64,000 bases of DNA from Candidatus Cloacimonadales bacterium (GCA_963663475.2 CAXXJV010000001.1:1888001-1952000), one strand, 5' to 3'. Positions 17,925 to 45,411 are shown, counted from the first letter of the stretch. Notes: a model not told the origin generated them from the sequence alone. Program-made: numbers and translations.

Positions 17925-18046
17925 TAAATTTGTGACACAGGTTTTTCCATACCAATTAGTATGGAAAAAGTGAAGTCACAATTTCCATTACTGCAATAAT
18001 AATCGACTTAAATATCAATATAATAAATACTTAGACGATGTCTCAA
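17925..18046 (+). repeat. putative left end of the Mu-like element
   Basis: TAAATTTGTGACACAGGTTTTTCCAT resembles the reverse complement of the right ends (TAAAAAGTGACACCCAAGTTTTCCAT). ACTTAGACGATGTCTCAA (~18029-18046) is the inverse of TTGAGACGGCGTGTAAGT (45323). Confidence 0.65.
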
Positions 18047-18170
18047 TTATTAATCAGTTTATTAATATTTTTAAGTAAGTAATCTACGTCTCCCTATCAT
18101 TTGCTCTTTAAGACTAATTTTACATTGTACCTAAAAACTGAAAAACTAAGATGTAACTAATTAAATAACA

Positions 18171-18206
18171 AAGCCCATCTGCTGATAAACGATGGGCTCT
18201 TTTTTT
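18171..18206. terminator. intrinsic terminator
   Basis: AGCCCATC...GATGGGCT stem flanked by A and T runs, immediately after the stop of 18210-18866. Confidence 0.6.
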
Positions 18207-18209
18207 GCT

Positions 18210-18866
18210 TTAAATTTTCTGTCCTTCAATAAATTGTTGCTTCTCGTGATATATGTAGGTCCTAATTACTCCATCTGTGTCAATCGAATGATAAAAAGCA
18301 CCTTCTAATAATACATGGTCAGGTAATTTATTAGTTTCAAAACCTAAGTATAAATCCGCTTTTCTAATCCTAAAACTCAACTCATAGAAACCTAACCATA
18401 TAGGACTTGAAGGAGTTTGATGATATACAGGGATATCATCTTTATCATGACAATCATTAAGCATTATAAAGCTATTCTCTGTAATAAATGAGCTAGCAGT
18501 TACTGATGCTATCTTGCAGTTAGTAAGCTTAAAATAATACCTCCCTGGACTAAGGTATAAGTTTGATTCAATTCTGTTTTGTCCAACAACAGTGTCTTTT
18601 ATTAACTCTTCATGAACAAGCTCAGATTTATCATCAAGCAAAGGCAAGTATCTGTAAACTTGAAATAAGGGAGAGCAAACATCTTCAAATTCAGTCTTCC
18701 AATCTACTAACAGAAGAGGTACTTGGATTGTGATTATCAGACCTCCATTAATATGATTGAAGTCAGGTTTGGAAGGTAAAGGCTCTCCTAATATATAGTC
18801 ATAAGTTTGAGATTCAAGGGAGTAGTTTAACTTACAATCTTGATTTTGAGTAAGTTTTTGCCACAT
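18210..18866 (-). CDS. prophage distal hypothetical protein
   Basis: Last gene of a tightly coupled minus-strand run next to the element end; no recognised motif. Confidence 0.55.
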   Translation of the reverse strand: MWQKLTQNQDCKLNYSLESQTYDYILGEPLPSKPDFNHINGGLIITIQVPLLLVDWKTEFEDVCSPLFQVYRYLPLLDDKSELVHEELIKDTVVGQNRIESNLYLSPGRYYFKLTNCKIASVTASSFITENSFIMLNDCHDKDDIPVYHQTPSSPIWLGFYELSFRIRKADLYLGFETNKLPDHVLLEGAFYHSIDTDGVIRTYIYHEKQQFIEGQKI

Positions 18867-18869
18867 AAA

Positions 18870-19388
18870 TTAGTTATCCTTCCATACATAAATTGCACCA
18901 CCAAGCTTAACCATTTGACCTGCAGAACCACTTGTAGGTAACTCAGATACCTCTTTTATTATGTTAGATGTATCTAAGCCTGTATCGGTAATGTTCTCTA
19001 TTGTTAATTCAGCTAAAATCATTGCTGAAGTTTTATCTTCAACTTTTGGTAATCCAACATCAGATTTTGTTATAGATATGTTACCTGATAATGCTTTACC
19101 ATTAACAGTTGTGCTTGTTTCTACTTTCTTATCAAGTGCTGTTGATAAACCATTTATTTTACTTTGTTCCAGGGTTGGAATTCTACTAGTTGAGAATGCT
19201 CCCGAAGTAATCTTAGATGCATCAAGATTAGGAATATTACTATTTGATATTAAACCTGTAATCTTAGTTGAAGGAATAGCTGGGATTTGAATACTTTTTA
19301 AAAGTCCAGAGCTATCTAACTCAGCAATACCACCTGCAACTCCAAGTTTACTTGAGTCTAATATTTCAGTCCAGGACCCAGCCATCAC
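18870..19388 (-). CDS. phage tail-fibre/spike-like repeat protein
   Basis: GVAGGIAELDSSG, IPNLDASKITSG repeats, TVNGKALSGNISITKSDVGL..V - motifs typical of tail fibres. Confidence 0.7.
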   Translation of the reverse strand: MMAGSWTEILDSSKLGVAGGIAELDSSGLLKSIQIPAIPSTKITGLISNSNIPNLDASKITSGAFSTSRIPTLEQSKINGLSTALDKKVETSTTVNGKALSGNISITKSDVGLPKVEDKTSAMILAELTIENITDTGLDTSNIIKEVSELPTSGSAGQMVKLGGAIYVWKDN

Positions 19389-19546
19389 TTGCCTTCTTCA
19401 GTTAACTTCTCGAGATGTTGGATCATAAGAAGTGCTCCTTCAGTTTTAAGGAGTTTTTCTTTTGTTTCATTTATGGTTCTGACAAGCTTTTGGTGTTCTT
19501 GAGTGAGTTCTAATTTCTGAGTTTGAAGTAGTTCTTTAAAAGTCAT
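19385..19546 (-). CDS. 53-aa coiled-coil phage protein (not in ORF track)
   Basis: MTFKELLQTQKLELTQEHQKLVRTINETKEKLLKTEGALLMIQHLEKLTEEGK*; AAGGAG RBS; start/stop overlaps with both neighbours. Confidence 0.65.
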   Translation of the reverse strand: MTFKELLQTQKLELTQEHQKLVRTINETKEKLLKTEGALLMIQHLEKLTEEGK

Positions 19547-19785
19547 GGGTTCTCCTTATAAATATATGTTTTACCGTTCTTTATAAATATCTGACCATCT
19601 CTTGCAGAGCTTGGAAATTCATCTCCTGAGAGGATAAGATTCTGGTCATAGATTCCTAAATCTTCTTTCTCATCAACAGTTGAATAGATAGGCTTTATGA
19701 AAGCAATATCCTTATCAGTTGAGATGGTTGGTTTAGTCTTTTTGTTGATTAAATCAAAAAGGCTGTTGTCTCTAATTGAGCTCAT
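19543..19785 (-). CDS. small phage distal/tail-region protein
   Basis: Coupled by a TAATG overlap; ILSGDEFPSSARDGQIFIK motif; partial second copy at 45412-45521. Confidence 0.6.
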   Translation of the reverse strand: MSSIRDNSLFDLINKKTKPTISTDKDIAFIKPIYSTVDEKEDLGIYDQNLILSGDEFPSSARDGQIFIKNGKTYIYKENP

Positions 19786-20027
19786 TATCTTAACTCAGCT
19801 ACTTTCTGGGCTAATGTGTTTGATGAATGAAGTACATTAGCTAGTGCTTGCAAGGCATCAGCATCTTGAGCAAAGGCATCTATGATATTACCAATAGTTA
19901 ACTTCTCTTCAATAGTTGTAAGTCTATCTTCTACAGGAGTATTAATATGCTTGAATTCATGGGCATAAACCGTCGTTTGACTGCTTTGGTCTGATATAGT
20001 AGTAACAACTACTTCAACAGTTTCACC
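19785..20027 (-). pseudogene. 3' fragment of a phage late gene, truncated at cargo boundary
   Basis: Open frame GETVEVVVTT...LAQKVAELR* with no start codon, coupled to the next gene. Confidence 0.55.
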
Positions 20028-20059
20028 TCAGAAATACCCTCTAATGAATTTTCATTAAT

Positions 20060-20361
20060 AAAGATATAACAAACCATAGAAAGAGCTGTAGATAGATAAA
20101 AGATTATCATAGAATTGGAACCTTGTGGGAACATGGAATAACTGATTTGCATGATATTTCAAATTTATCGATATTATCAAAAAGGCTCATCACCCAATAT
20201 ATTGACATTCTACCAGAAAAAAGTTAAAAATATTATTGGCAAAGAGAAACTTGCTTATTCAAGCAAAAATAAATATTATATCTTCAGCTGATGAAACAGA
20301 AACAGGCTCTGCTGGGGAGCAACCTGATAGGAATAATCAGCAAAGAAGTGGTTTAATATAA
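20060..20361 (+). pseudogene. possible DUF1670-like C-terminal remnant
   Basis: Frameshifted TNH...AVDR..KDYHRIGTLWEHG....IS..S.LSKRLITQYIDIL; followed by a hairpin at 20361-20388. Confidence 0.35.
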
Positions 20362-20467
20362 AATGGCACGACTGATGCCGTGCCATTTGTAATTTATTAT
20401 ATCATTTTGTCCATGTTTTAGAAAACCCATTATAGTGGGATCCTGAAGCTCATGGGGTCATATGATA

Positions 20468-23400
20468 CTATTTTAAAAGGATCATCTTTTTAGTTAACTC
20501 TTTTCCACTAGTCTTTAGTCTAGAGAAATAAACTCCAGATGCTACTGATTTGTTGTTTGAGTTTGTTCCATTCCAAACAATTCTGTGATTACCTGCTGAT
20601 AATTTTCCATCAGTAAGTGTTTTTACCTTTTGCCCTCTTATATTATATATATCAAGTTTAACTTCAGAATCACATGGCAAATCAAAGGAAATGACAGTTT
20701 CAGGATTAAATGGGTTTGGATAATTACTATATAGTTTTAATATTGGGGCAGAAACATTATTCTCTATATTAGGATATTCTGGCGAGATTAAGTAGTAAGA
20801 TTTATTTAGGATAACATCTTGTGAAATTTTGAATCTATTCTCCTTGAAATCATATGTATAAAAGTCTCTGAGAGTACTCCTTTTATCTACAGAAGCAAAT
20901 TCTAATCTAATATTTGATTCGATTTTTGTTTCAATTGAAGGATATAACAAAAGTTGAGCTTGATTATCCACAACAGCCACAGCTCCAATACAAACATTAT
21001 CTTGAAAAGCACCAATTTCTATTACAGAGTCATCGATATTTACTATATCCATTACTATATATTCATCAGTAGCTTTGAATTCATACTGCGTTAAGTCAGG
21101 AGCTGCATTCTTTTTATAGTAAGAACCAGAATTGCTCCACCTAAATCCCTGTATAGTTTCGCTAACTCTTACGATATAACCTCTTCCTTTGTGTAAAGTG
21201 TGTGTTTTCCAACTTGGAGGTGTAGAAATGTCAATTCCTCCTTTAGGATTTATCGGGATAGGAGCATAACTCCATTTTTCAGATTTCATCGAGGTTACTT
21301 TCTCAAAATTATCACCAAATGCATCTCTCATGTCTTTACTTTCATCCAACCAATAACCAACCCAGTTGTCGACATCCGGATATAAAGTAATGGAAGTCTG
21401 TGTATTTTCCATATCATATGGGATATCGTATTGATTTGAATAATCGGTCATATTAATTTTATAGAATGCTGAACTATAGATTGTATCAAGCCCATTTATA
21501 CTCCAGTTATTATTATCTAAGGTTGCATAATCATTTTTATACATAATACTAATTCCATATGGATTAATCGTCTCAAACAATTGATTATTATCCATACTTC
21601 CACTTGCAATTGGGAAAGAAACCCAATTCCAACCAGAATGTATATGGGTATTAGCACTGAACGGAATTGAGATATCAGTATTCATAATATCATCTGATTT
21701 AATATTGATAAATCCATTATAACTTTTATACATTTTAGTGGGATAAAAATTTCCAATAATTGTCATACTCGAGTTTGGATTAAGTTCACTTTGATAACTA
21801 TCAAATATTAATACATCTTCTAAGTCTTCAGATACATCAATCTCAATATTTGTTATATTTTTATTATTGCTAGTATTTAGAACTTCGAATTTAAACTCCC
21901 TTGGAGAATCAGGATTAATATTACCTAATGTTATCTCAGGTGTATCTATATTAAGATAAATATCATTATACTCGAATGCTCCAATATCAATTGATTGTCG
22001 AGCAATTCTATTATTACCATCAATATCTTTAGATAGAGAATAATATACTATGTCATCCCCGTTTTCTGAAGGTAAGTATCCACTGTCAAAGCAAGGTGAG
22101 GTAGTATCAATCTTATAACTATTGCAGATTAATGGATCACTGTCGATATTGTTGTTAGCAGTATAGTTTAAATTCATATTGCTATTGTAAGCATCATTAA
22201 AACTGGCATATGAAATATAATCATTAGATGGATCATCAATTAAATTAAAACCTTCAATACTATTCGATTCAAAAACTACCTCATGATTATTTAAAAGATC
22301 ATTATGCAAATAGTATAAAATTGAATGCCCAACTCCAGAAACTTCAGAAGTACCCTCAGCCTCATTGTCTCTAAATATATTGTTGATAAAATAAACTGAA
22401 TTGCTGTCGTTTAGTAATGAAACTGCCCCTCCTCGTCCTGTAGCAGTATTGTTAACAAATGTATTATTTTGGATAATAGTATTATAGGATGAGGAATCAT
22501 GGAAATTATTTTGACGAATTGAAATAGCCCCAAAATTATTAGCACTGTTATTATTAAAAACATTACCAGCAATGATAACATCTCTATAATCATCATTACC
22601 TCTTATATATATAGCACCACCTGAACCAGCTTGATTGTTTTCAAAATAACAATTTTGAATTATGGGAGGTGCACCCCAAGCACATATAGCTCCACCTCCG
22701 GATTCAGATGTATTATTGAGAAAACGACAATTATTAAATACAGTAATGATAGTATCATCATCATTTCGTTGCTTAATAAATATCGCCCCCCCATCACCAT
22801 CTTCTTGATTAGTTGAGGGATTATGCCTCTTAGATATATTATTTCTAAATATACAATTATTGAAAGTTACTGTATAATCAACCGTTGAGTAATTATTATC
22901 GAAATTAAATGCTCCACCAGAGGCCGTGCTTGAACCTTTTGCATTTTCAAAAATTGCCCATTCAAATGATGAATCATCAAATACAGTTCTAGCTTCTTTT
23001 CCTATATATACTCCATACCATCTATCATTGTCATAAAGAGTTGGTTGAAGATTAGTAAAAGTAACAGGCTTATTTTCTGTACCTATAACTTTAACTGCAC
23101 CACTTATCCCGAACAATTTGTTTCGTTCGAATTTAAGAGTTATGCCATTTGTGGAAGAACTTGAGTCAATTATTAACATTGTATTTTCGGGAACCCGAAG
23201 ATTTCCAGTTAGTGATCTTAAGTCATCTACTAAATCATCTGGAATTACTGTATCTTGAGTTATATAATATGTTTGAAGATAACTAGCATCATCATATCTT
23301 GAAACTGTCTTTTTATCGAAAGCATTGTACCTAAATTCTGAGGGTATTGAATCTGAATTTTTGGGATGATAAGGCCAACTACTTTCTAAACTTGTAGCCC

Positions 23401-24904
23401 AAAAATATGGCATACCTGGGCAATAATATGATTCATCATTCCAAGCTTCTGCCTCAGTACCATAATGATCACTAGTCCAAGTCCTTGTATAATAGTTACC
23501 CCAAAAATTCATTCGCTTGATAATATTATTCTTCTCAATTGGTTTTACATCAAAACCTCTTCCACTAGTTAACTTATAGCCAAAACTTGCATATTCCATT
23601 GTTGCTTTAAGCACTGTTGTAGTTAGAATAATTGCTAATGGTTCCCCATAAATTGGAATAATACTTAAAATAGCGTTACCAATAGCAATCCCGCCCCCAG
23701 CGGTCATATACAGTGGACCTGCATCTGTCCAATGTTGTTTCGATTTACCATAATTATTAATAGTTATCTGTTCAGTTTGCTTTTCTGATTCGGCATGTTT
23801 ATCTAAATACCCTGGTAGTTTTGGATAAACAGCTAAACCATACTTACTAGACGTGTTTCTAAAAAAGGTGTTATGTTCTTTGTTCTGTCCCCAGAATGAA
23901 TCTACTTGGATTGAATTACAAATATTGCCTTCAAACAGATTCTCATAAGGACCTTCATAGGTGCCACCATAGTGCTGAGAAGATTCTCCATGACACAACA
24001 AATCACCAGTATAGTCATCAGGTACAATACTTGTTATAAGCCATTTACAAAAATCCTCCATCCAAGGTGCTACTCCTGATGGATGCCAATCTTCAATTGA
24101 AGTATTTTTGGAGTTTTTTACAGTATTATATCCAAAAACATTGTGATGTGCACCATTCTGAACTATCATAGAATGTCGTAGTCTTCTAAAAATATTGTTC
24201 TCAACGAGAATATGATGACTATCATATTCTATAAAAACACCGTAACCCTCTCCCCCATCACCATGTCTATGTGCATTATTAAAGTAACATCCCGCAACAT
24301 AATTATGTTCTGAATTTATCATACGTATGTGACTTGTAACTGGGGTTGTACTTTCAACACCTATTACCCAACTGTTACTAGTATTCGTAAAATGTATATT
24401 GTTACCAGTATCAGTATCTGCAGAGTCACTATTGTCTTGTCGAACAATCCATAAATCTTCAATTCCAACTTTTTCCATAGGTTCTGTACTACTACCAACA
24501 TTAATACAATTTTTATTAACCCCAAGATTAAAGTTCAAAATAGTTCGTTGACTTCTATCCTCATCTCTCCTAAATTGGTGATTACCTTTTAGGATTATAT
24601 ATGATTTAAGGTTGATTGGCTCAGAGAGATTGAATTCTCCCGGAGGTAATAAAAGTCTAACGATGTTAGTTGGAGAAGGGTATATCTCATTGTCTTCGTC
24701 TACATGCAATATATCATCTAAATTGAAATTTTCTATATCCGATATAGATAAAGAAACATCTTCATATTGACTGGGAATATCCCTAATCAATCCTGCATCT
24801 TGCCATTCGGCACTTAAATGCTCAACTACTGGGTATTCAGTAGTAAAAGCTGCAATATTATATATAAATGTAAGTATCATTAAAATCATAATTCTATTCT
24901 TCAT
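20468..24904 (-). CDS. 1478-aa secreted right-handed beta-helix protein (pectin-lyase-like fold + GGAI/FxxN repeats + Ig-like) with T9SS-type CTD
   Basis: Signal peptide; GDGGEGYGV...VENNIFRRLRHSM..Q.GA..NVFGYN; multiple GGAI/F.NN repeats; DIGAFE; NYPNPFNPET...ASGVYF...KKMILLK. Confidence 0.85.
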   Translation of the reverse strand: MKNRIMILMILTFIYNIAAFTTEYPVVEHLSAEWQDAGLIRDIPSQYEDVSLSISDIENFNLDDILHVDEDNEIYPSPTNIVRLLLPPGEFNLSEPINLKSYIILKGNHQFRRDEDRSQRTILNFNLGVNKNCINVGSSTEPMEKVGIEDLWIVRQDNSDSADTDTGNNIHFTNTSNSWVIGVESTTPVTSHIRMINSEHNYVAGCYFNNAHRHGDGGEGYGVFIEYDSHHILVENNIFRRLRHSMIVQNGAHHNVFGYNTVKNSKNTSIEDWHPSGVAPWMEDFCKWLITSIVPDDYTGDLLCHGESSQHYGGTYEGPYENLFEGNICNSIQVDSFWGQNKEHNTFFRNTSSKYGLAVYPKLPGYLDKHAESEKQTEQITINNYGKSKQHWTDAGPLYMTAGGGIAIGNAILSIIPIYGEPLAIILTTTVLKATMEYASFGYKLTSGRGFDVKPIEKNNIIKRMNFWGNYYTRTWTSDHYGTEAEAWNDESYYCPGMPYFWATSLESSWPYHPKNSDSIPSEFRYNAFDKKTVSRYDDASYLQTYYITQDTVIPDDLVDDLRSLTGNLRVPENTMLIIDSSSSTNGITLKFERNKLFGISGAVKVIGTENKPVTFTNLQPTLYDNDRWYGVYIGKEARTVFDDSSFEWAIFENAKGSSTASGGAFNFDNNYSTVDYTVTFNNCIFRNNISKRHNPSTNQEDGDGGAIFIKQRNDDDTIITVFNNCRFLNNTSESGGGAICAWGAPPIIQNCYFENNQAGSGGAIYIRGNDDYRDVIIAGNVFNNNSANNFGAISIRQNNFHDSSSYNTIIQNNTFVNNTATGRGGAVSLLNDSNSVYFINNIFRDNEAEGTSEVSGVGHSILYYLHNDLLNNHEVVFESNSIEGFNLIDDPSNDYISYASFNDAYNSNMNLNYTANNNIDSDPLICNSYKIDTTSPCFDSGYLPSENGDDIVYYSLSKDIDGNNRIARQSIDIGAFEYNDIYLNIDTPEITLGNINPDSPREFKFEVLNTSNNKNITNIEIDVSEDLEDVLIFDSYQSELNPNSSMTIIGNFYPTKMYKSYNGFINIKSDDIMNTDISIPFSANTHIHSGWNWVSFPIASGSMDNNQLFETINPYGISIMYKNDYATLDNNNWSINGLDTIYSSAFYKINMTDYSNQYDIPYDMENTQTSITLYPDVDNWVGYWLDESKDMRDAFGDNFEKVTSMKSEKWSYAPIPINPKGGIDISTPPSWKTHTLHKGRGYIVRVSETIQGFRWSNSGSYYKKNAAPDLTQYEFKATDEYIVMDIVNIDDSVIEIGAFQDNVCIGAVAVVDNQAQLLLYPSIETKIESNIRLEFASVDKRSTLRDFYTYDFKENRFKISQDVILNKSYYLISPEYPNIENNVSAPILKLYSNYPNPFNPETVISFDLPCDSEVKLDIYNIRGQKVKTLTDGKLSAGNHRIVWNGTNSNNKSVASGVYFSRLKTSGKELTKKMILLK

Positions 24905-24916
24905 TTTTACCTCCTA

Positions 24917-25996
24917 TTAGTAATGTAAAAATCCTACAATTCCCACAATTTTTGTATTATTAAGATTCATGTGAGTCTTAGAGACATTATGATATTTTCC
25001 GAAAAATTCACCATTTTCTACAGCAAATGTAGAATCTATCACTGTGTCATAAATAATTTCATTCATCAACAAATAACGATCATCTGAACTAAAACTAATA
25101 TCATTAATGTTATAAACACTTGTATCAAAAAGTATAATAGATAGTGTTTCTATGTTTAATAAATATTCATTCCTATCATTGCCACGCTCAAAAACAACAA
25201 ACCCGTTCAAGTTCGAGTACTTTAGTTGTATATAGCCTTCCGTCAAGATATCAATATTATTATTAATTAAGTCATGTTTCCTTAAATTATGTATTCTTAC
25301 AATTTCCTCATTTTCAATTATTTTGTAACTGTATCGATATAATATTGTATAATCATTAACTCTTCTAGCATAGTGGTATGATGCATTATACAAAGGGTCT
25401 TCTTGTATTATTGTGTTCAAAATAACAAGTGATCCATTTGTTAAAATATTGTACTCAATCAATCCAAGTTCAATAGTAGTGTTCTCATCTACTACAGTAT
25501 AGTTATATAGTATCGACTTTTCATCAAAAGAGAATGATGGCGAAGAGCATTGACTAACTGAGTCTATAGATATCTTCTCAACTTCAGTACCATCTACACT
25601 AGATAGATAAACCTTACCATCATGAAGAAGAATCATTTTTGTCCTATCCCGGTTAAAATATTGCACTCCACCTAATGAATCAATAATAGTTCTTCTATAC
25701 TCTCCATCGAGAGACATAATATCAATTCTGTTTGCAAAGTCTAATAGTATAACTTCATCATCATAATTTCCTGCTAAGTCTCTAACGAAATAAGGTCTTG
25801 CTCCCGCAAAAGAAGTTTGATTTTGTGATTGTAATAGTTGTACATCAGAACCATCAATGTTCATTGTAGCTATGAAATCTTCTCTCCAAGCACCCTCATC
25901 AACTTCGGGGTCATTATATAACTTAAAATCACATCCAGCAAGTGTTATAAGGATAATAATAAACAAGGGCAATATTATAATTTTAAAGCTGTTCAT
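24917..25996 (-). CDS. lipoprotein with TolB-like beta-propeller features
   Basis: Lipobox LAGC; MNIDGSD, SVDGTE, PSFSFDE, FSSDD repeats. Confidence 0.65.
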   Translation of the reverse strand: MNSFKIIILPLFIIILITLAGCDFKLYNDPEVDEGAWREDFIATMNIDGSDVQLLQSQNQTSFAGARPYFVRDLAGNYDDEVILLDFANRIDIMSLDGEYRRTIIDSLGGVQYFNRDRTKMILLHDGKVYLSSVDGTEVEKISIDSVSQCSSPSFSFDEKSILYNYTVVDENTTIELGLIEYNILTNGSLVILNTIIQEDPLYNASYHYARRVNDYTILYRYSYKIIENEEIVRIHNLRKHDLINNNIDILTEGYIQLKYSNLNGFVVFERGNDRNEYLLNIETLSIILFDTSVYNINDISFSSDDRYLLMNEIIYDTVIDSTFAVENGEFFGKYHNVSKTHMNLNNTKIVGIVGFLHY

Positions 25997-26727: not shown

Positions 26728-26856
26728 ACTATACTCCTTATTTTTATTATTTATTGAAGTAATTTAATATCTTCTAAATTTGTCAAGTTCTTTTTTGCTT
26801 AATATATGCATTTATAAATATTTATTGAACACTACCATCTAATTGATAATAAGGCC

Positions 26857-26913
26857 CTATAATAGAATGTAAAACAGACTACTAAACAATATTAAAATAT
26901 TCCTTTTGTGCAT
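26857..26913 (-). pseudogene. signal-peptide stub of a deleted paralogue of 46251-47231
   Basis: MHKRNILILFSSLFYILL* vs MYKRNILILFSSLFYILL; upstream ~90 bp also shared. Confidence 0.7.
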
Positions 26914-27009
26914 CTTTTTATTGTTTCCTTTTTTTATATTTCATTTAACTCCTATTTTGTTGCAATTAGCTAAACCCTTAATATACAAGGATTACTATAA
27001 CTGCGACAT

Positions 27010-27207: not shown

Positions 27208-27299
27208 ATCTCCTCCTATTATATAGACCCTAAAAAAACTAATATTTTTATTAGTTTACTCTATCTAATTGATATATATAAATTTATGAGAGGCTAGCG

Positions 27300-37141: not shown

Positions 37142-37595
37142 TGCTTGCCCTTTTTCTAAAGTATTCTACTATACCAGTTTCTCCTAAAATCTCTTTTTGG
37201 ATTGCTCTGGCTATTTCGTCATTATTTGAGCTTAAGAAGAAGTCTATTAACCAATCTAAGAACTTCTTCATATGTTCAATGAAGTCCTTGGTTGGCTCGA
37301 AGTCTATCTTATACTGTCTAAGTAATGATACCAAAGATTGAAGAGCAGTGTCTTGTGGAGCTCTTGCATACTCTCTAAGAGCTTTAATTAAAGCCTTCTT
37401 AAGTGCTATCTTAATTTCATCTTCAAGAGTTGCAATTTGATCATACTCAGTTTCCCAGTTGTCTTTCTTGATCCAGTTTCTAACTGTCTTTTCGGCAACA
37501 TCATAAATCTTAGCAAGAGCCACTGCATTAGTTTCTCCTTTAAGATATAGTTTCTTAGCTGATTGTCGTTTGATTTTATATTCTCTTGAATTCAT
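37134..37595 (-). CDS. putative terminase small subunit (DUF1804-like HTH)
   Basis: AKKLYL.G...LA..YDVAEKTVRNW...W; directly upstream of terL. Confidence 0.7.
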   Translation of the reverse strand: MNSREYKIKRQSAKKLYLKGETNAVALAKIYDVAEKTVRNWIKKDNWETEYDQIATLEDEIKIALKKALIKALREYARAPQDTALQSLVSLLRQYKIDFEPTKDFIEHMKKFLDWLIDFFLSSNNDEIARAIQKEILGETGIVEYFRKRASSG

Positions 37596-37959
37596 AAGAT
37601 TGTAAGACCTTAATTAAAGTTCCTTTTTCATTTTTGGTTAGATATTTGATTCCTGATTTATTAAATTTCTGGGCTATAAAATCATACAACTGCTTTCTAG
37701 ACCAGTTTGAAGATTTATAAAGAGCCCATATTTTCTTTCCTTGAGGATCTAGATTCTCATAAGTATAGTTCTTTTTGCCTCTGAGAATTAGATTAAGATT
37801 AATGAGAGAAGGCAGATTGAGCTTTCTTAAGGAGGTTCCGAATCCTAAAGTTTGCATTTGGGAATGTAGTTCATCAATAGTTATTCGGAGATCATTTTTT
37901 GCGAAAATAACTATGATTTTTCTCAAACGTTTTGCTAACTCAATCTGCCTGTCTGTCAT
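37576..37959 (-). CDS. Mu GemA/gp16-like protein
   Basis: Size, position and C-terminal 'L..FI...F......LT..E...LI..L' pattern. Confidence 0.5.
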   Translation of the reverse strand: MTDRQIELAKRLRKIIVIFAKNDLRITIDELHSQMQTLGFGTSLRKLNLPSLINLNLILRGKKNYTYENLDPQGKKIWALYKSSNWSRKQLYDFIAQKFNKSGIKYLTKNEKGTLIKVLQSYEFKRI

Positions 37960-37961
37960 AT

Positions 37962-38195
37962 CTATTCATTAAGAGGATCTACTTTGTGATCTTCTAGGTA
38001 TTTATTAATCTCTTTACCATGAACCCTTAACTGCCCATTAGTCTTTAATCTAAAGGCGGGTAGTGGATCATCTATATCACGTATAAGTCTATAGACTGTA
38101 CTAATATCAACATTTAATATTTCTGCTACATTAACAGGTGTGTAGCATCTGCTTTCATTAAAAACTTGTACCATATTTATATCTCCTAAATCCAT
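37962..38195 (-). CDS. excisionase-like HTH DNA-binding protein
   Basis: YTPVNVAEILNVDISTVYRLI....LPAFR...QLRV. Confidence 0.8.
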   Translation of the reverse strand: MDLGDINMVQVFNESRCYTPVNVAEILNVDISTVYRLIRDIDDPLPAFRLKTNGQLRVHGKEINKYLEDHKVDPLNE

Positions 38196-38304
38196 ATAAA
38201 CAAGCTAGTGGATATCGTCAAACCTCGATGCCTACATTTACCACAGAAAATTAGCAAAGAGAAAAGCTCCCAATTTTAGGAGTTATCAAAAGCTTAGACT
38301 TTCT

Positions 38305-39405
38305 CTACAAAGCACTAAAGTTAAGTGAGATAAGTCTAAATGGCTTATCTTTATCAGGTCTCTCATAAAAAGCAATATATTGCTTGGTTGAGGTAACTTG
38401 AATTGCCTCATCAATTAAATCCATAGCTTGTTGCCATTGTTTATCTTTGATGTTATAGCGTCTAAGTCCTAAGATTCTACTCTTAGCAATTTCCCCTTTT
38501 TTATCAACCTGGAATGCCTCTTTAATCACTGCTTGAAGATTTATATTTGAATCTTCACTCCACCGCTTTAAACACCCATCAATCTTCTGTTTGGCAATTT
38601 GAAGTTTCTCACTAAATTCGATTCGCTCTCTTTGCCTGACTTCAATCTTATACTTCCCATCAAATGATAATAACTCAGCATTGCCTTTCCATTCTTCTCC
38701 GTATTTTTGAGCAGTTTGGTTTAAATACTTATCAATATCATCTACCATTTTAATTTTCTCTGATTCAATTCTATCATGAAGTCTTGAAGCTTTTCCCATA
38801 AGACGATTAACAATAGTATCTCGTTTCACTATTTCAGGATCGAGTATTTTAGCTGGGTATTCTCTTCCACTGGCATCAACAAGAATTTTCTCTTTTCTTC
38901 CCATTATTACTCCTTCTTTAAACTCAGATTCTTTACTCTTGAGTTTGCGTAAGATATTACTGTCGAACTTACTACCTATTAGAAGTAAATCGACATCTTT
39001 TATGACTTTGTATTTTCCATTAACTAAATCTACCATACCGATTGAGCATAGAGCTACTAAGTATCTAGTAACTTTTCTTCGATCACCATCAAGGATTTCT
39101 GATAACTGCCTTACACTAGTATAGTTACCAGTCTTGACTTTCCGTAGCATAGATTTTAGAAATTTGATTTCGAAATTATAATTGTTGGTAGGGTTCTCCT
39201 CAACATAGTTAATATTCTTAATGTAAATTGAGAACTTACCCTTCTTGGATATTGGTTTTATTAATTCTTGGTTGCTCATTTTATTTAGCACTTTGATGGA
39301 CTGCTGTAAGGTCAAACCAGTTTCACTGGCAACAAGGTCGCCAGTGAAGGGTTTTCCATAATACTCTATAAAGTTTCTTACCTTTTTAAAATTGGATATT
39401 TCCAT
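38305..39405 (-). CDS. HTH protein fused to DUF3164-family Mu-like protein
   Basis: C-terminal half: KGNAELLSFDGKYK, F.E.LQ.AK..ID.C...W, AFQVDK.G, W..AM..I. Internal RBS and ATG at 38904. Confidence 0.75.
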   Translation of the reverse strand: MEISNFKKVRNFIEYYGKPFTGDLVASETGLTLQQSIKVLNKMSNQELIKPISKKGKFSIYIKNINYVEENPTNNYNFEIKFLKSMLRKVKTGNYTSVRQLSEILDGDRRKVTRYLVALCSIGMVDLVNGKYKVIKDVDLLLIGSKFDSNILRKLKSKESEFKEGVIMGRKEKILVDASGREYPAKILDPEIVKRDTIVNRLMGKASRLHDRIESEKIKMVDDIDKYLNQTAQKYGEEWKGNAELLSFDGKYKIEVRQRERIEFSEKLQIAKQKIDGCLKRWSEDSNINLQAVIKEAFQVDKKGEIAKSRILGLRRYNIKDKQWQQAMDLIDEAIQVTSTKQYIAFYERPDKDKPFRLISLNFSAL

Positions 39406-39415
39406 AAATTACCTA

Positions 39416-40129
39416 CTATATTGTGCCTAGATGCTCAGGTTTTATATGTGTTAGATCTTGTGACTCAGCAAGGTTTTCTAAGGAGTATAAAGACTTAATA
39501 AATTTCCTAATGTTACCCTTGGTCTTCCTGGCTATGAATTGAATAACAGTGTCATCAACTTTTACCTCACATACCTCTTTACATAGGAGGATTAAATCAT
39601 CTATTTCTAAAGGTTTAAATTGGCAGAAGAAGTTGCATCTATCAAAATAATGAGCATCAGCAGATAAGAGACTCTCTTTAGCATCTGACATTCCTACAAG
39701 AACTACTATTGATAGTGTTTGATCAACAATATCACGAATACTGCCTAAAATCTTTTTATTCTTAAAGGCATAATCTATCTCATCTATTACTATGACGGTA
39801 TTCTCAAAGTTACTAAGGATATCTACACAACGTTGGAAAATATCATTAGCTGTTCCTCTAACACCAATTTTTGGCATACCGAAGTGATAATAAATACGCT
39901 CTAATAATCTACCAGCAAAGCTCTTAGCTGTCATAGTAGCTTCGAGTCTAAAGTAGATATAATCATTTTGGATAGCTGATTGACGGGCAAATCTACTTTT
40001 ACCAAGTCCTGGAGGTCCATAGATAAGTCCTAAACCAACCATTTCAGTTTTAGGTCTTTTAATCAAATAATCAAATAAATCGTAGGCTCTAATTACATTC
40101 TTTGTTTTTACTAAGGTATATTCTCGCAT
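39416..40129 (-). CDS. MuB-like AAA+ transposition ATPase
   Basis: Walker A GPPGLGKS, Walker B VIVIDEID, R.I.D, VVLVGM; directly after the transposase. Confidence 0.88.
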   Translation of the reverse strand: MREYTLVKTKNVIRAYDLFDYLIKRPKTEMVGLGLIYGPPGLGKSRFARQSAIQNDYIYFRLEATMTAKSFAGRLLERIYYHFGMPKIGVRGTANDIFQRCVDILSNFENTVIVIDEIDYAFKNKKILGSIRDIVDQTLSIVVLVGMSDAKESLLSADAHYFDRCNFFCQFKPLEIDDLILLCKEVCEVKVDDTVIQFIARKTKGNIRKFIKSLYSLENLAESQDLTHIKPEHLGTI

Positions 40130-40137
40130 ATTATCTC

Positions 40138-42147
40138 CTATTCTATACCTATCTGTTTAAGCATTTTATCAAGATTCTCTAAACCTCTTTCTTCAATTGA
40201 TTTTGGAGGTTGAACTTGTTTTGATTTTGAAATTAAACGAGCTGTGCTTTCAGCCATTTTATCAAATTCTACATTTGGATTTTTTATTACATCATGTTTT
40301 AATAGCTTTGATTTATTAAAAGCTCCCTTGCTTATTTGTAGAATTGGTAACTCAAATTCCGAGATAGCTTCCTGAACTTGTTTTTGAATAATAGCTGATT
40401 TATCTTTAACATCCTTTTCAAGCTGTCTTTGGTAAGCTAGTTGTTTAAGCCATTTCTTTTTAACTAAAGGCTCATCTTCAACTAGTTTAACAAATGGATG
40501 GACACTTTTCCTTGGTAAAGCTTGGCAGATTAATTTACCTTTCTTATCATAAACTAGAACTGACCTCATATCCATCAAATCATATTTTAAAGATACTGTT
40601 TGCCCTACGTACTTGACTAAATAATCATGGTAGTAAACAATACTAAACAATTGAACTCCATTAGCTCGAACTTTTCTCTCATCAACTTTTAACATTAAGA
40701 AATTGAGTTCCGAAGCGTCTATTCTTCTTTCTTCTGGGACTACACTTGCTCTAAAAACCTCAAGAGGAGTTTTACCAGCAAGACCACCATGAGGTGTTTT
40801 CCCATACATCTCTTGAAAGTAATATGACATCATATCTTTAGTTTCTTGAATAGTAACGGGCTCTCTCTTCTTAAGCTTTTTAATCCACTTCTCATTACGC
40901 ATATGGAAGGCAGGCTTATCAGAGATGTCAGAACCTCTAAAGGTATCCATAAAACGTTCAAAGTCTTCCTGGAATGTCTTGAAGAACCTTTCCACAACTT
41001 TTGCTCTTGCATTATAAGCTTTAGCAAATTCAGCTTTGATATTAAGTCTTGGAAATACTCCACAGAATTCATCTTCTAAATTATGTTCATTCCATTTTTG
41101 ATGAAACAGCTTTGATTTAAAGGCTCTTCCGTTATCAAGATAAACGAATTTAGGTCTGCCGTTCCAGTGAAGTATACCATTTCTCAATGCCATAAGGATG
41201 TGTTCTGAATCTTCAGTATTAGCTATTGATGCTCCAACTGGATATCTACTAGCCCAATCGAAGAATAGGATTAACATCATACGTTTAGGTCTTCCTGTAT
41301 CAGGATCAATGATATCAAAAGCAAGTTTATGACCATCAGCCACCCATACATCACCAACACTAAGGTTATTAGCTCTGCTTAGACTTAAGATGTTATTGTC
41401 TTTTAAAAATTTCTCACCCATTCTGAGTAGATTCCATTGTTGTATGTTATTATCTCTCCACTCTTCACACCAGCGTCTTAGTGCTCTGCTACTAGTAGGT
41501 GATTTAATTGCTCCTAGTCTATCAAACTGTTTTAGCTTTCTGATGGCAGTTCCAATCTTAATCCTATTGGCATCTAATAAGATTCCTAATAAGAAGTTTT
41601 GCTCCTGAATAGTAGCTCTTTTTTGAGTAGATGCTTTTGAGAGACGAGTCAGAACCTTGAAGTCTCTATCATTATCTTCATAATCCTTAAGCCACATACG
41701 AACTGCTCTTTCAGTTCTTGAACCCTCCAATTTATATAACCTTGGTAGAAGCATACCTGAGTTGTAGGCTTCTAAAACTAAACGAATAGCACGTATCTTG
41801 ACTTTTGATCTCTTGTACTCTTCGAGAATCTTATCACATAACTCAGCTTTCAACTGTGCTCGTATAAGTTCTTTCTCTGGTACTGTTATCGGTGGGACTA
41901 AATCTTGGATAGACTCATCATATTCCACGATTTCAGCTTTGATAGCCTTAGAGATATTCTCTTTAGGCTTGTCTTCAGTTGAAGGTAATATAGATTTTGG
42001 AACTAAATAATATCTTTTAGTTCCACCTCTGTCTAAAGGCTTATCAATGAAAGACCATTCTTCTGATTTAGCTTTTCTATAAGCACTAGCTCTTCCAAGA
42101 GAGAGTATTTTCTGAATTTCAATAATTGTAAGTTCAGTATATTCCAT
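40138..42147 (-). CDS. MuA-like DDE transposase
   Basis: N-terminal Mu-type HTH (A..E.W...GG....Y), catalytic WVADGH / YLDNG / KVVERFF, Mu-transposase C-terminal region. Likely start is ATG 42147 after GAGGTG. Confidence 0.92.
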   Translation of the reverse strand: MEYTELTIIEIQKILSLGRASAYRKAKSEEWSFIDKPLDRGGTKRYYLVPKSILPSTEDKPKENISKAIKAEIVEYDESIQDLVPPITVPEKELIRAQLKAELCDKILEEYKRSKVKIRAIRLVLEAYNSGMLLPRLYKLEGSRTERAVRMWLKDYEDNDRDFKVLTRLSKASTQKRATIQEQNFLLGILLDANRIKIGTAIRKLKQFDRLGAIKSPTSSRALRRWCEEWRDNNIQQWNLLRMGEKFLKDNNILSLSRANNLSVGDVWVADGHKLAFDIIDPDTGRPKRMMLILFFDWASRYPVGASIANTEDSEHILMALRNGILHWNGRPKFVYLDNGRAFKSKLFHQKWNEHNLEDEFCGVFPRLNIKAEFAKAYNARAKVVERFFKTFQEDFERFMDTFRGSDISDKPAFHMRNEKWIKKLKKREPVTIQETKDMMSYYFQEMYGKTPHGGLAGKTPLEVFRASVVPEERRIDASELNFLMLKVDERKVRANGVQLFSIVYYHDYLVKYVGQTVSLKYDLMDMRSVLVYDKKGKLICQALPRKSVHPFVKLVEDEPLVKKKWLKQLAYQRQLEKDVKDKSAIIQKQVQEAISEFELPILQISKGAFNKSKLLKHDVIKNPNVEFDKMAESTARLISKSKQVQPPKSIEERGLENLDKMLKQIGIE

Positions 42148-42149
42148 AC

Positions 42150-42392
42150 TCACCTCTTTTCGCAACTCTTGTAGTTTTTATTAGTGTGCTTGCGATAGAT
42201 TTTGCTAACTTCACGAAGTTATGGTTGGAGGATTTCTAAAAATTCATCTGCTTTTCTTAAGAATCTTCCTTCATTAATAAAATAATCTAACGTTCTTCTG
42301 GAGACGGATAATTGTTCAGCTATTGCTTTAATAGTGAGACTTTTAAGTGTCATAGCTGCTCTTATTTCAGCAGGATGATACGGTGATCTCAT
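42150..42392 (-). CDS. ner: Ner-like HTH regulator (57 aa to TAA at 42219; frame stays open to TGA at 42150)
   Basis: GGAGG RBS; MRSPYHPAEIRAAMTLKSLTIKAIAEQLSVSRRTL resembles the Ner H.A.I.A motif; divergent from repressor; not in ORF track. Confidence 0.7.
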
Positions 42393-42555
42393 CCGAACCT
42401 CCTAAATTTTTATTGACATTGTTCGCAATGTTGCAAATAATGACTACTGAATCTATAAAGCTAAAAAATGCGAAACAAGTCAAGGAAAATATTCCATCAA
42501 TCGCATAAATGTGCAACAATGCGAAATAGAACTCAACCTCAAAATAGGAGATCAA
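42393..42555. promoter_or_regulatory. divergent lysis/lysogeny switch region with candidate operators
   Basis: TTGACA-17nt-AATAAT at 42413-42441. TGTTCGCAATGTTGCA (42420) is inverted relative to TGCAACAATGCGAAAT (42512); a third ATGCGAAACA lies at ~42468. Confidence 0.55.
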
Positions 42556-43284
42556 ATGGATATAAAAGATAGGCTTTTAATGTTTGTAAATGCTCTTGAT
42601 ATAAAGCGTTCCGAATTTGCAAAAAACATTGAAGTTACATCAGGCAATTTATCAGATTGGTTGAACAGAAAAAAAAATAGTAAGCCCTCCGCATCTGCAA
42701 TGGCTCGTATCAACGAACAATATGATTTGAATTTAAATTGGTTATTAACTGGCAAGGGTGGAATGTTTGTTTTAGAATCTGATGGCAATCTGTATGGAGA
42801 TGGAGATAAAAAGTATGTAGAAGAGATGACTGGAAATAATTCAGTATATCAACACAAACTAAATCCCTTTGATTCCAGGAACATTACTCTTCCTATATAT
42901 GGAGAGATTTCAGCTGGTACTCCAATTAATGGTTATGATGATTCACCATCAAAGTATATCGAGATTCCTAAAGCTTATTTGTCAGATCAAGAAGAGAAAT
43001 ATATCGCACTTAAGGTTAATGGAAATAGTATGTATCCAAAAATAATGCATGGTGATGTAGTTGTGATAAAAGAAAATATAGATGTTATAAGTTTAGATAG
43101 TAAAGTCTGTGCCTGTCAAACTCCTGAAGGTGTTACACTCAAGAAACTACAATTCGATAAAGAGAAGAAGAGGGTTATACTTAAACCTCTTAACCCAGAT
43201 TTTGATGTAATAATAATTGAAGACTTTGAGCTTGAGACCTTCAGGATTTTAGGCGAAATGGTTTTCTTGTTTAGAGTAGTATAA
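42556..43284 (+). CDS. CI-like repressor (HTH + S24 peptidase)
   Basis: N-terminal HTH, LNWLLTGKG, ISAG cleavage site, V.GNSM.P (Ser), TLKK (Lys); AGGAG before ATG 42556. Confidence 0.92.
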   Translation: MDIKDRLLMFVNALDIKRSEFAKNIEVTSGNLSDWLNRKKNSKPSASAMARINEQYDLNLNWLLTGKGGMFVLESDGNLYGDGDKKYVEEMTGNNSVYQHKLNPFDSRNITLPIYGEISAGTPINGYDDSPSKYIEIPKAYLSDQEEKYIALKVNGNSMYPKIMHGDVVVIKENIDVISLDSKVCACQTPEGVTLKKLQFDKEKKRVILKPLNPDFDVIIIEDFELETFRILGEMVFLFRVV

Positions 43285-43285
43285 T

Positions 43286-45016
43286 CTACTGACTATAATG
43301 TGATTCCAGATGATCTAAAACTTCTTTTTGGTTGTTTAATAATATTGGTTTATTCCATAAGCTATTATTTGTCAAAACTCTTAATGAATTACTGAATAAA
43401 TCAATATTTTTATGAAAGTACTTTTTCTTTTTATCTACATAATCAGAACGACCCAAAGAAGAGTTCTTTCTTCTGCTGATAAGAACCAGATTTCCTATTT
43501 TATTTGTAAGCTCTAATCTTTCGTCATCGGTAAAGTCTTTACACCATTGACTGTTTTGATGAGGGTTTTGAGGTAAGATGTGCTCAACACTCACTGTTTT
43601 TGGAATACTTAATTTAGTAGTATGGCTATGGAACAAGTACTCTAGCTTGTAGAGAATATATCTAGCATATCTTCTTTGATAAACATCACCATTTATTATT
43701 AATATTAAATTTTGTAAATCAATCTTAAATTCTTTTGAAGCAATTACTTCCTCATAATTATCAGTTTTTTCGATATCTTTCAAGAGATTATTCATATTCT
43801 CAATTCTCTGAGTTGGAGTAAATTGTAAAATCCAATCTGCAGAAAACTTATTATCTAGTTTCTCAAGAAAATTTAATAAACCCTTTTCACCAAATTTATT
43901 ATAATATACTAGAAGTGAAGGAATCCAAAATTCAGCAGGTAGTGTGACCTTCATAATTGTTAAGAGGTTATCAATTTTAAAATCAATATTTAAATTAAAG
44001 TGGCTATTGTCAAATAACTCACAATATATATCTTTATATTTTTTGATTAACCGAAAAGTATCTTCTCCTTCATTTAATAATGATGGACGATCAAAATACT
44101 CCTTTTTTTCAATATCAAAAGATTTCGGGTTGTAGATGTTTTTCTCAAACTCATCCAGTAAGTTCAAACGAGCTTTTTCTTTAACTAGTATTGTTCTGAT
44201 GTGAGATAGGAATACATCAAAGTCCTCTCCAAAGTAGTCTTCAGAATCTTCCCATTCCTTTGCGTATTTTTCTTCTAAAGTTTTGTTATTCTCTAATGCT
44301 CTTAAATTCTGGGCTTTTAAAATATCGCTATTCCTAAGTTTAACACCTCTATCATTCATAATAGTGAATAATCTAAATGCGTCTTCAAGCTCTTCTGAAG
44401 ACACATAAATCATTAATACCTTCGATCTAAAAAACTGATAAAATTCATCAATGTTAATGTCCTCGGTCTCAAAAAAATCTCTTATGACTAATATTGCATT
44501 AGCCATATTTTTAATAGATGTAATTTTTGAATCAGAAGCAATTTTTTTTAACTTATCAGTTTTTTTTGTACCTTCAAAATCACGAACATGGTCTTCAACG
44601 AATCTCGAAACATCATCTCTAATATCAAATACTATTCTTAATCGTTCTGGAATGTTGTCCCAAGGGTCTTCGCTTTGATATATACTCGACTGACATTTTT
44701 CTATAAGTTTTTTGTTTTCTGTTATGTCTCTTATTACTGCAGTAAGTAATAATAAAGTGGTAAGCCTTTGTTGACCATCTAAGAGATCGTATTCAAAGTA
44801 TTCCTGAGGACCATCTATTTTCCTTTTTTGAAGGACTATAGACCCTAAAAAATACTCTGATTTATTATTTTGCTTTTGTGCGTGTGAAATATCATCGAGC
44901 AAATCATGGACATGGTCTTTTTCCCATACGTATGGTCTTTGATATTTTGGTATTCTAAACCATTTCTCAAATACATCTTTAATATAAATTTTATCACTAT
45001 CGATTGTGTGTGCCAT
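43286..45016 (-). CDS. GmrSD-like type IV restriction protein (DUF262 + DUF1524/HNH)
   Basis: IPKYQRPYVW, LDGQQRLTT, F..MNDRG..L; C-terminal VEHILPQ, IGNLVLI...N. Confidence 0.88.
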   Translation of the reverse strand: MAHTIDSDKIYIKDVFEKWFRIPKYQRPYVWEKDHVHDLLDDISHAQKQNNKSEYFLGSIVLQKRKIDGPQEYFEYDLLDGQQRLTTLLLLTAVIRDITENKKLIEKCQSSIYQSEDPWDNIPERLRIVFDIRDDVSRFVEDHVRDFEGTKKTDKLKKIASDSKITSIKNMANAILVIRDFFETEDINIDEFYQFFRSKVLMIYVSSEELEDAFRLFTIMNDRGVKLRNSDILKAQNLRALENNKTLEEKYAKEWEDSEDYFGEDFDVFLSHIRTILVKEKARLNLLDEFEKNIYNPKSFDIEKKEYFDRPSLLNEGEDTFRLIKKYKDIYCELFDNSHFNLNIDFKIDNLLTIMKVTLPAEFWIPSLLVYYNKFGEKGLLNFLEKLDNKFSADWILQFTPTQRIENMNNLLKDIEKTDNYEEVIASKEFKIDLQNLILIINGDVYQRRYARYILYKLEYLFHSHTTKLSIPKTVSVEHILPQNPHQNSQWCKDFTDDERLELTNKIGNLVLISRRKNSSLGRSDYVDKKKKYFHKNIDLFSNSLRVLTNNSLWNKPILLNNQKEVLDHLESHYSQ

Positions 45017-45094
45017 TATAACCTCCTTTAATATTTGATGTATTTAACAACTAGTTAAATTTTTGTCAAGATATAAAAGTTATATAAGGAAATG

Positions 45095-45411
45095 ATCGAG
45101 ATCTCGTTCGTTGTCTCAAATCAAGAATTTAAAACCGATATCTCACGTGAGACAGCGAGATATCGGTTGTTTTTTGAATCCTAAACCCACAACTAGCTAC
45201 TAACATAAAGACATACAATAGATTAGTAGCATAGCAAATTCCCCAAACAACCTGTAAAGCTAGCAGAGAAGTTGTAAAAAATACCTGCAAATGTAGTTAA
45301 AATGGAAATTTTGAGACATCGATTGAGACGGCGTGTAAGTGGCGAATAAATAACACTTTATACAAGTTAACTAGCGATGTCTCACATGGAAAACTTGGGT
45401 GTCACTTTTTA
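45095..45411 (+). repeat. Mu-like right end, copy 1
   Basis: Several TGAGAC/GTCTCA boxes; ends CTCACATGGAAAACTTGGGTGTCACTTTTTA; homologous to 50103-50404 and 60523-60841. Confidence 0.9.

Follow-up and report, generated by a model that had tools for sequence, protein, structure and literature searches.

What has become of a Mu-like prophage whose capsid and tail genes are replaced by genes for secreted proteins, and can such an element still move? The question is raised by the locus at 17,925 to 45,411 in a stretch of 64,000 nucleotides from Candidatus Cloacimonadales bacterium (GCA_963663475.2 CAXXJV010000001.1:1888001-1952000), hereafter called the window, in which genes of a Mu-type transposable phage surround putative type IX secretion system (T9SS) substrates, recognized by a C-terminal sorting domain (CTD). 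An original prediction, made from the sequence of the window alone, had taken the locus for a phage-derived transposon that ferries T9SS substrates. We conclude that 17.9-45.4 kb is probably a grounded (defective) prophage of a Mu-type siphophage family, in which a cassette of host type replaced the head and tail genes in an ancestor and which then decayed further.

Gene content of the element and of its intact relatives

We scanned the 37 open reading frames (ORFs) of the window with Pfam and PHROG profiles. Searching with the large terminase TerL identified relatives in 20 of 41 related genomes; 13 loci were compared with reference proteins, and 11 of them have a common backbone. The ends of the family were located by repeats common to several copies, and order-wide searches, for the DNA of the portal junction and for the terminal motif, covered 203 genomes of the Cloacimonadales order. 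The genome of the window is called G000; G002, G003, G004 and G006 are of the same genus, and G008, which holds the copies G008a and G008b, belongs to another. From left end to right end, the element reads:

45095-45411, minus: the element's left end (alignment to three further left ends); terminal motif TAAAAAGTGACACCCAAGTTTTCC begins at 45411
43286-45016, minus: GmrSD-type restriction enzyme (PF03235 and PF07510), in a variable defence slot between left end and repressor
42511-43284, plus: CI/LexA-type repressor with helix-turn-helix (HTH) and S24 peptidase (PF00717, PF07022, phrog_4)
42219-42788, minus: three small early ORFs, the last a Ner-like HTH protein (weak HTH matches; kept in relatives)
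40138-42165, minus: full-length DDE transposase of MuA/TnsB type (PF09299; phrog_310, E = 5.5e-86)
39416-40129, minus: AAA+ transposition ATPase of MuB/TniB type (PF13401, PF05621; phrog_296, E = 1e-27)
38305-39405, minus: DUF3164 protein whose first 170 or so residues are of winged-helix type (PF11363, 186 bits; weak HTH_Crp_2/TrmB matches)
37134-38195, minus: HTH_17 protein, 127-aa protein and small terminase TerS (37134-37595) (Pfam/PHROG; order kept among backbone elements)
35615-37141, minus: full-length large terminase TerL (phrog_38, E = 8e-61)
34720-35601, minus: Mu gpF-like head morphogenesis protein (PF04233 at 27.3 bits, below the cut-off of 29.6; phrog_241, E = 3e-12)
31351-34300, plus: cargo slot 1, with host-type upstream sequence and a 366-aa CTD protein at 33195-34295 (PF18962, 42.4 bits; cut-off 27)
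30819-31192, minus: M15 endolysin, frameshifted at about 30923 (PF08291; two tblastn pieces in different frames against intact relatives of 127/132 aa)
28870-30127, minus: three small late proteins of 141, 154 and 124 aa, upstream of the portal in all relatives
28238-28869, minus: portal gene, first 212 codons only (Pfam/PHROG, alignment to relatives)
27300-28227, plus: sigma-70-region-2-like gene, frameshifted (G008b and a host paralogue have it intact, with 319 aa)
24917-27207, minus: 65-aa peptide and lipoproteins of 244 and 359 aa (lipoprotein-like N-termini)
20468-24904, minus: 1478-aa beta-helix-like protein with a T9SS CTD (PF18962, 31.8 bits, cut-off 27; PF13860)
19788-20045, minus: distal-tail gene, last 86 codons (tblastn; 274-281 aa in relatives)
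18210-19785, minus: tail-fibre end module of 80-aa, 53-aa, 172-aa (fibre-like) and 218-aa genes (phrog_23008, E = 2e-9)
17883-18109, no strand assigned: interior right-end piece with an inverted motif pair at 17932/17979; the terminal 220-250 bp and a 129-aa gene are missing

The repressor, transposase, ATPase, TerS, TerL and gpF genes equal those of relatives in length, in agreement with the original prediction, which had called them full-length; the DUF3164 gene likewise has the length seen in relatives. The putative transposase matches PF09299 at 59.3 bits (cut-off 21.7) and rve at 27.5 bits, under the cut-off of 32.6; judged from these profiles, it would unite the RNase-H-like core and the Mu-transposase C-terminal domain of a Mu-type transposable phage, and the adjacent AAA+ target-capture ATPase is encoded by the next gene downstream. 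Among solved structures, searched by sequence, the transposase matches the TnsB chains of a CRISPR-associated transposon alone (E = 3.7e-11), with no MuA chain even at E up to 10, and the ATPase gives weak generic AAA+ matches only (ShTnsC, E = 0.006). An Atlas look-up with the N-terminal part of the DUF3164 protein returned scores below 0.9 only, as pointers towards a winged-helix type. The families TnsA and TniQ/TnsD have no match among the 37 ORFs at E up to 0.01, a range that leaves room for distant homologues.

The same Pfam and PHROG scans contain no match to a capsid, protease, sheath, tube, tape-measure or baseplate family, so the absence of such genes noted originally holds. The portal ORF at 28159-28869 (236 aa) has weak portal matches, and 212 of its codons belong to a portal of 393-396 aa; alignment to the full portals of relatives, which score above the PF04860 cut-off, puts the break after codon 212, at the very position 28238 first given for it. 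The 5'-less phage fragment originally placed at 20027 is real as well, being what a distal-tail gene of 274 aa encodes as its final 86 residues, with 19788-20045 as its corrected coordinates. Between the two, the gap of about 8.2 kb (20.1-28.2 kb) holds what had been described, namely the sigma-like pseudogene, the 65-aa peptide, the two lipoproteins and the 1478-aa CTD protein, and the second CTD gene, at 33195, scores above the PF18962 cut-off. The frameshift of the endolysin at 30819-31192 and the absence of a right terminus had been missed.

In the 11 backbone elements, the order is repressor, transposase, ATPase, DUF3164 protein, TerS, TerL, gpF, slot 1 on the opposite strand, endolysin, the 141-, 154- and 124-aa genes, portal, a fusion of XkdF protease and capsid of 578-624 aa, small genes, Dam, tape measure, distal tail and the 80/53/172/218-aa module; outermost in the intact order are the left end with the defence slot before the repressor, and the right end after the fibre module. 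Compared with intact relatives, the window lacks the remainder of the portal, the protease-capsid fusion, Dam, the tape measure and genes of the distal tail. Tape measures, 872-992 aa in length, are present in 6 of the 11 elements (G027, G031, G014a, G014b, G003x and G004x), the same ones that have the complete head and tail module missing from the window; G036 has a tape-measure fragment of 167 aa, and the window, G008a, G008b and G024 have none. The fibre module is kept in G008b, G024, G027 and G031.

Because the intact relatives carry tape measures, the family is a real siphophage family, transposable in the manner of Mu, that circulates in Cloacimonadales; a tail-less satellite family was rejected on the same ground. 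The close clade around the window (TerL at least 87% identical) consists of three differently shortened derivatives, the TerL of the window being 93% identical to that of G008 and 87% to that of G024. Since this 87% is far above the identity of the hosts G000 and G024 (Mfd 53%, UppP 50%), the family crosses host families. A contig binned as Woesearchaeota archaeon (L111) has a TerL 82% identical to that of the window and is probably a mis-binned Cloacimonadota phage contig. G000 also contains three to four copies, 98.5-99.9% identical to one another, of a different element (C1:1-23265, C1:1366000-1391000, C2:305896-331003 and C2:1-11050), which is about 25 kb long, carries homologues of DUF3164 and of the fibre module and looks like a recently active transposable phage.

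Retention of TerS, TerL and gpF could mean that the element is a phage satellite, packaged into the capsids and tails of an intact relative. These are its best conserved genes despite the loss of portal and capsid, with identities of 92-93% (TerL), 89% (TerS) and 89-90% (gpF) and a ratio of nonsynonymous to synonymous substitution rates (dN/dS) of 0.06-0.09. However, G000 holds no close intact relative that could act as helper, its other TerL matches being 34-35% identical; G008a, co-resident in G008, has head but no tail genes; and an element without a right terminus would have no amplification by transposition for Mu-style packaging. We therefore consider a satellite improbable.

The portal junction, the ends and the decay of the window copy

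At 28238, portal codon 212 is joined to the end of the sigma-like cassette, and this junction is nucleotide-identical in the window and in G008b. Beyond it, one side continues in a host paralogue of the cassette in G000 and the other in intact portals; a second portal fragment in the window, G008a and G024 all continue as portal past the break point. Junction-spanning DNA was found in 3 of the 203 genomes, G000, G008 and G003, with just 100 bp left on the portal side in G003. The window aligns to G008b over 20326-30255 in one 10-kb piece at 81.5% identity and over 34721-43285 at 80.4%; relative to G008b it has lost three more distal-tail genes, one of which left its last 86 codons. The shared junction indicates that the replacement of the head and tail genes was a single event, common to two genera, and the break is no one-off.

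Both joints of this phage/host/phage mosaic, at 20030 and 28238, adjoin multi-copy sequence (CTD tails and sigma-like cassettes), where an assembly artefact might arise. The 28238 junction is nevertheless present in the independently assembled genomes G008 and G003, which excludes mis-assembly, and the entire 10-kb block is colinear with G008b. Contigs from a public run, which may be the assembly's own source, also bridge 19630-25781 and 27961-28342 without difference. We regard an artefact as extremely unlikely.

In G008b, both termini are present and are flanked by a 5-bp target duplication (GTATC/GTATC), as are those of G008a (TTTGA/TTTGA). G008b lies 740 kb from the G008 tmRNA gene, beside a tRNA-Gly/Leu/Cys array, and its flanks are not syntenic with those of the window, their orthologues lying elsewhere in G000. 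Given this non-orthologous site and the perfect target duplication, one copy or both must have arrived in place after the replacement, whether by transposition or by a recombination event through which a resident relative acquired the junction.

The family's terminal motif, TA(T/A)AAAGTGACA(C/G) followed by a T-run, has 28 exact occurrences in 11 of the 203 genomes, and the pattern read backwards has none. This census and the alignment with other left ends show that position 45411 is a true left terminus, as originally proposed, of the same type as those of G008a and G008b, both of which have target duplications. The proposed start at 17925 turned out to be an interior right-end repeat pair and no terminus. 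The 129-aa gene found just before the right end of G008a, G008b and G024 is gone too, and the right-terminus motif occurs nowhere in the window, on neither the plus nor the minus strand. The window's three left termini share one orientation, and there is therefore no pair of ends in it, whereas G008a and G008b each have two inverted ends. Scanning the window for long terminal inverted repeats gave chance-like pairs only, and around G024 no matching target duplication was found from two candidate left termini.

The surroundings of the element contain the following features:

16454-16803, plus: tmRNA gene, its 3' end facing the element's right end
17548-17860, plus: multi-copy repeat abutting the shortened right end (copies in G000 at C1:1954929, 1958370, 1968054 and 1981143)
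45412-45521, minus: 110-bp piece of another element's 80-aa gene, 92.7% identical to 19611-19720, directly outside the left terminus (nested insertion)
49421-50404, minus: second remnant, in which a left-end copy (50103-50404) is fused to an N-terminal portal piece that continues beyond the break point at 28238 (repeats, alignment)
60515-60841, minus: solo left end (repeats, motif census)

The repeat at 17548-17860 is presumably the C-terminal fragment of an IS200/RAYT-type transposase with REP-like GTAGGGGCG...CGCCC hairpins, and the 110-bp piece outside the left terminus is fused to a duplicated FG-GAP gene fragment. Other genomes of the genus hold remnants behind this tmRNA gene that have decayed further. 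G004 has there the same repeat and right-end interior joined to the 3' part of the repressor and a left end; G003 has scattered pieces of the element, and the 3.3-kb loci around the tmRNA genes of G002 and G006 contain no element sequence. As G004 holds the same right-end interior, the truncation of the right end predates the split of G000 and G004. Lacking a right terminus, with frameshifted genes and set among nested remnants, the window copy is dead as a transposon and can neither move nor make particles.

Directly after the tmRNA gene, 16821-17148 is a 173-bp tandem duplication (98%). The left-end copies within 49421-50404 and 60515-60841 are each about 320 bp long, and G003 and G006 have several solo left ends of the same type. 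G008a contains a tandem duplication of left end, a 333-aa phrog_1762 gene and the 3' part of the repressor (L011:1278-5839); the entire element lies within an older solo left end, at a distance of 219 bp from a tRNA array, and the G000 counterpart of this array (C1:2515608-2516249) has a left end and a repressor remnant alongside.

Based on these observations, we propose that in an ancestor one illegitimate recombination fused the portal, at codon 212, with the end of a cassette of host type comprising the sigma-like gene, the small peptide, two lipoproteins and the large T9SS-CTD protein, an event that would have deleted about 10 kb of head and tail genes. The derivative would have retained its ends and transposition module and spread to two or more genera, and in G008 it forms a clean Mu-type insertion. 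Later, the window copy would have lost its right terminus and the gene beside it, as well as three further distal-tail genes and the intact frames of the endolysin and sigma-like genes; its cargo, if expressed, may now serve as ordinary chromosomal genes for secreted or surface proteins.

Another possibility is that the G008b-type lineage is a working phage-derived transposon, a natural mini-Mu that makes no particles but still transposes, with the sigma-like, lipoprotein and T9SS-substrate module as selected cargo; the window copy would then be a member disabled not long ago. In G008b, transposase and ATPase are intact and both termini and the 5-bp duplication are present, the same junction occurs in two genera at different tRNA-type loci, and G008a, a different derivative, has CTD genes, a sigma-like gene and a small peptide within its ends. 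Between the window and G008b, every gene, retained or cargo, has a dN/dS of 0.06-0.23 (0.11 for the transposase); the truncated portal is also low, however, so that these values are no proof of function. Moreover, two full copies and one scrap of the junction in 203 genomes give no sign of proliferation, and prophage recombination could equally move the junction. The element and G008b are about 80% identical in nucleotides and 63-96% in proteins, which is near the host values (Mfd 72%, UppP 60%, three flank proteins 73-81%) and fits long vertical residence. We thus consider a mini-Mu-like lineage possible, though doubtful. As a test of whether phage genes still function after capsid loss, dN/dS was dropped because it cannot discriminate, the neutral control, which is the truncated portal, also having a value of 0.11.

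Several observations weigh against a grounded prophage that descends from one replacement event. A dead portal fragment diverging alone should look different from one with a dN/dS of 0.11, and the portal piece of the window is closer to the window's second fragment (88.9% nucleotide identity) than to G008b (83.8%), so that gene conversion among copies or retained use of the fragment must be assumed. The synonymous rate dS is a mosaic along the element, 0.4-0.9 in the middle versus 1.2-2.2 in both flanks, as in parts with different histories; a simple tree of one event followed by divergence is not recovered, and gene conversion blurs the history. The fibre module and the right-end remnant may belong to an older element that the window element entered, since a fragment of the 80-aa gene sits outside the left end, and the junction could have spread by homologous recombination between resident prophages instead of transposition.

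Cargo slots and host cassettes

Both the 1478-aa and the 366-aa protein carry the T9SS C-terminal sorting domain, and the CTD proteins of the window have hydrophobic N-termini, as judged by eye in the translations. A gene of the PorV family (9098-10150, minus strand; PF19572, 86 bits) lies 8 kb from the element, beside a gene for a 1077-aa CTD protein. The 1478-aa protein is 76% identical in G008b with a dN/dS of 0.19, and the cargo genes as a group have values of 0.12-0.23, which indicates purifying selection.

An opposite-strand block is present as slot 1 in all 11 backbone elements and contains CTD genes in four of them (the window, G008a, G008b and G031); in G008a, moreover, the place of the tail genes is taken by two CTD genes, along with a sigma-like gene and a small ORF. 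CTD genes thus stand in the same slots of related elements. In intact relatives, the cargo occupies moron slots alongside complete head and tail genes. In the other slot 1s, together with those of the IMG/VR contigs that reach it, the large ORFs scanned are mostly restriction-modification, OLD plus UvrD, STAND, ABC-3C and Schlafen-type genes. No CTD was detected among these ORFs, either by a local CTD model, which derives from G000 sequences and could overlook divergent CTDs, or by a Pfam re-scan of the large slot-1 ORFs of other elements that left out three ORFs spanning joins between loci (984 aa in G036, 841 aa in G014a and 690 aa in G014b).

In relatives, slot 1 is a hot-spot for defence genes (for example L053:11513-17984, L056:2032-8198 and L066:9455-15887), with type I and type II/ISP restriction-modification, OLD plus UvrD (Gabija-like), STAND NTPases, parts of ABC-3C and a Schlafen-like helicase. 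The slot between left end and repressor, occupied by the GmrSD-type enzyme in the window, holds OLD with HNH, a phrog_1762 protein or a 213-aa ORF in relatives, and similarity to relatives stops at the stop codon of the repressor.

The cargo has counterparts throughout the host genome. Upstream DNA of slot 1 matches the leaders of host FG-GAP genes elsewhere in G000, which has about 160 CTD ORFs, with 45% of the genome lying within 6 kb of one. Sigma-like genes occur at 11 loci in G000, and 9 of the 11 have a CTD ORF within 6 kb, against the background of 45%. The host cassette itself consists of a 319-aa protein with only sigma-70 region 2 and a divergent peptide of about 65 aa, the 11 loci including 27010-28227 and C1:1572397-1573593. 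The cargo is a standard host module, and with so many CTD ORFs its capture is expected by chance and needs no special explanation. What stands of the predicted T9SS-ferrying transposon is the replacement itself, common to a second genus, with its recurrent and selected CTD cargo; what falls is a working transposon in the window, and neither the mostly defensive content of slot 1 nor the chance level of CTD capture favours a special role for T9SS cargo. Nor is phage-borne cargo of this kind new: a study of a Bacteroidetes phage already describes T9SS sorting domains on phage genes (PMC7468147). The portions of the literature within reach of our searches contain no report of T9SS-CTD cargo in Mu-like phages or of such prophages in Cloacimonadota.

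Right ends behind tRNA and tmRNA genes and relation to known systems

Mu-type phages are textbook examples of near-random insertion. In this family, 8 of the 28 termini of the motif census have a tRNA or tmRNA gene within 1.5 kb on the outside, while 0 of 28 have one on the inside. Five of the 28, in five genomes of which several are unrelated, lie only 16-88 bp from the 3' end of an RNA gene that faces the element: tRNA-Asn, tRNA-Pro, tRNA-Val and, twice, tmRNA; these right termini are at L084 (G024), L082 (G004), L080 (G003), L086 (G168) and L089 (G188). Right ends with a variant motif are 60 bp from tRNA-Val in G036 and 257 bp from tRNA-Lys in G027; G008b is 713 bp from its tRNA array, and the right-end remnant of the window is about 1.1 kb from the tmRNA gene. 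This proximity suggests orientation-specific, targeted insertion, unlike that of Mu. For Mu itself, tRNA genes are reported to be under-sampled as insertion targets (PMC7350765), and the literature accessible to our searches held no case of tRNA-directed insertion by a Mu-type phage. The placement of right ends behind tRNA and tmRNA genes is, in our view, more surprising than the CTD cargo. A joint reading, which we put forward tentatively, is that lysogenic sites some tens of bases behind tRNA/tmRNA genes are chosen in a Tn7-like manner, with a single orientation of insertion, by the TnsB-like transposase and a selector, for which the double winged-helix DUF3164 fusion would be a candidate, and that the particle-less derivative seen in G008b and the window still transposed with its cargo, a module of sigma-like gene and T9SS substrates.

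The family resembles Mu and other transposable phages, especially the siphovirus types B3/D3112, in its repressor divergent from a DDE transposase with AAA+ ATPase, its ends of repeated motif, the 5-bp target duplications of G008a and G008b, the gpF-like head protein and, in intact relatives, a siphovirus-type tape measure. It differs from them in a portal of PF04860 type, a capsid fused to its protease, a transposase that matches TnsB alone among solved structures and right ends that lie just behind tRNA/tmRNA genes rather than near-randomly, and the window copy has neither capsid, tail nor right terminus. Mini-Mu derivatives, laboratory constructs that are the subject of a review (PMC3145075), consist of the ends plus A and B; G008b likewise keeps ends, transposase and ATPase as the minimal set and lacks morphogenesis genes, but it is natural, still has packaging genes and is known from sequence alone, whereas the window copy fails the requirement for two ends. 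The G008 copy, within intact ends and a target duplication, is rare natural evidence for a transposable phage that persists without particle genes, possibly with mini-Mu-like movement.

Prophages that are grounded and serve as sites of gene gain (PMC6379469) are close to the window prophage, which is immobilised and has deletions, pseudogenes, nested insertions and acquired non-phage genes; it is an ordinary outcome of a prophage losing virion genes, gaining host DNA and eroding. Here, unlike in that case, the deletion-substitution is older than the separation of the copies in the two genera, and in one of these it is enclosed by intact transposon ends. Similarly, the Bacteroidetes 'Cryophage' (Bellas et al. 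2020, PMC7468147) has variable genes with T9SS sorting domains, which have been interpreted as a means by which the phage directs the secretion of surface proteins; they stand on a non-transposable genome of 76 kb, while the carrier in Cloacimonadales is of Mu type and its largest cargo block replaces structural genes. Cloacimonadales also join the hosts in whose phages fixed cargo slots are occupied by T9SS substrates and by many defence systems.

Tn7 and Tn7-like elements, including the type V-K CRISPR-associated transposons, share with the family, as their behaviour is generally understood, a TnsB-like transposase, a TniB/TnsC-like ATPase and orientation-specific insertion that places the right end nearest a conserved gene, shortly downstream of it. 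The family differs from them in having no match to TnsA, TniQ/TnsD or Cas12k at the E-values used and in being a phage, with terminase, portal, capsid and tail genes. If true, a targeted Mu-type phage whose transposase is TnsB-like would connect transposable phages with site selection of the Tn7 kind and represent a new target-selection system.

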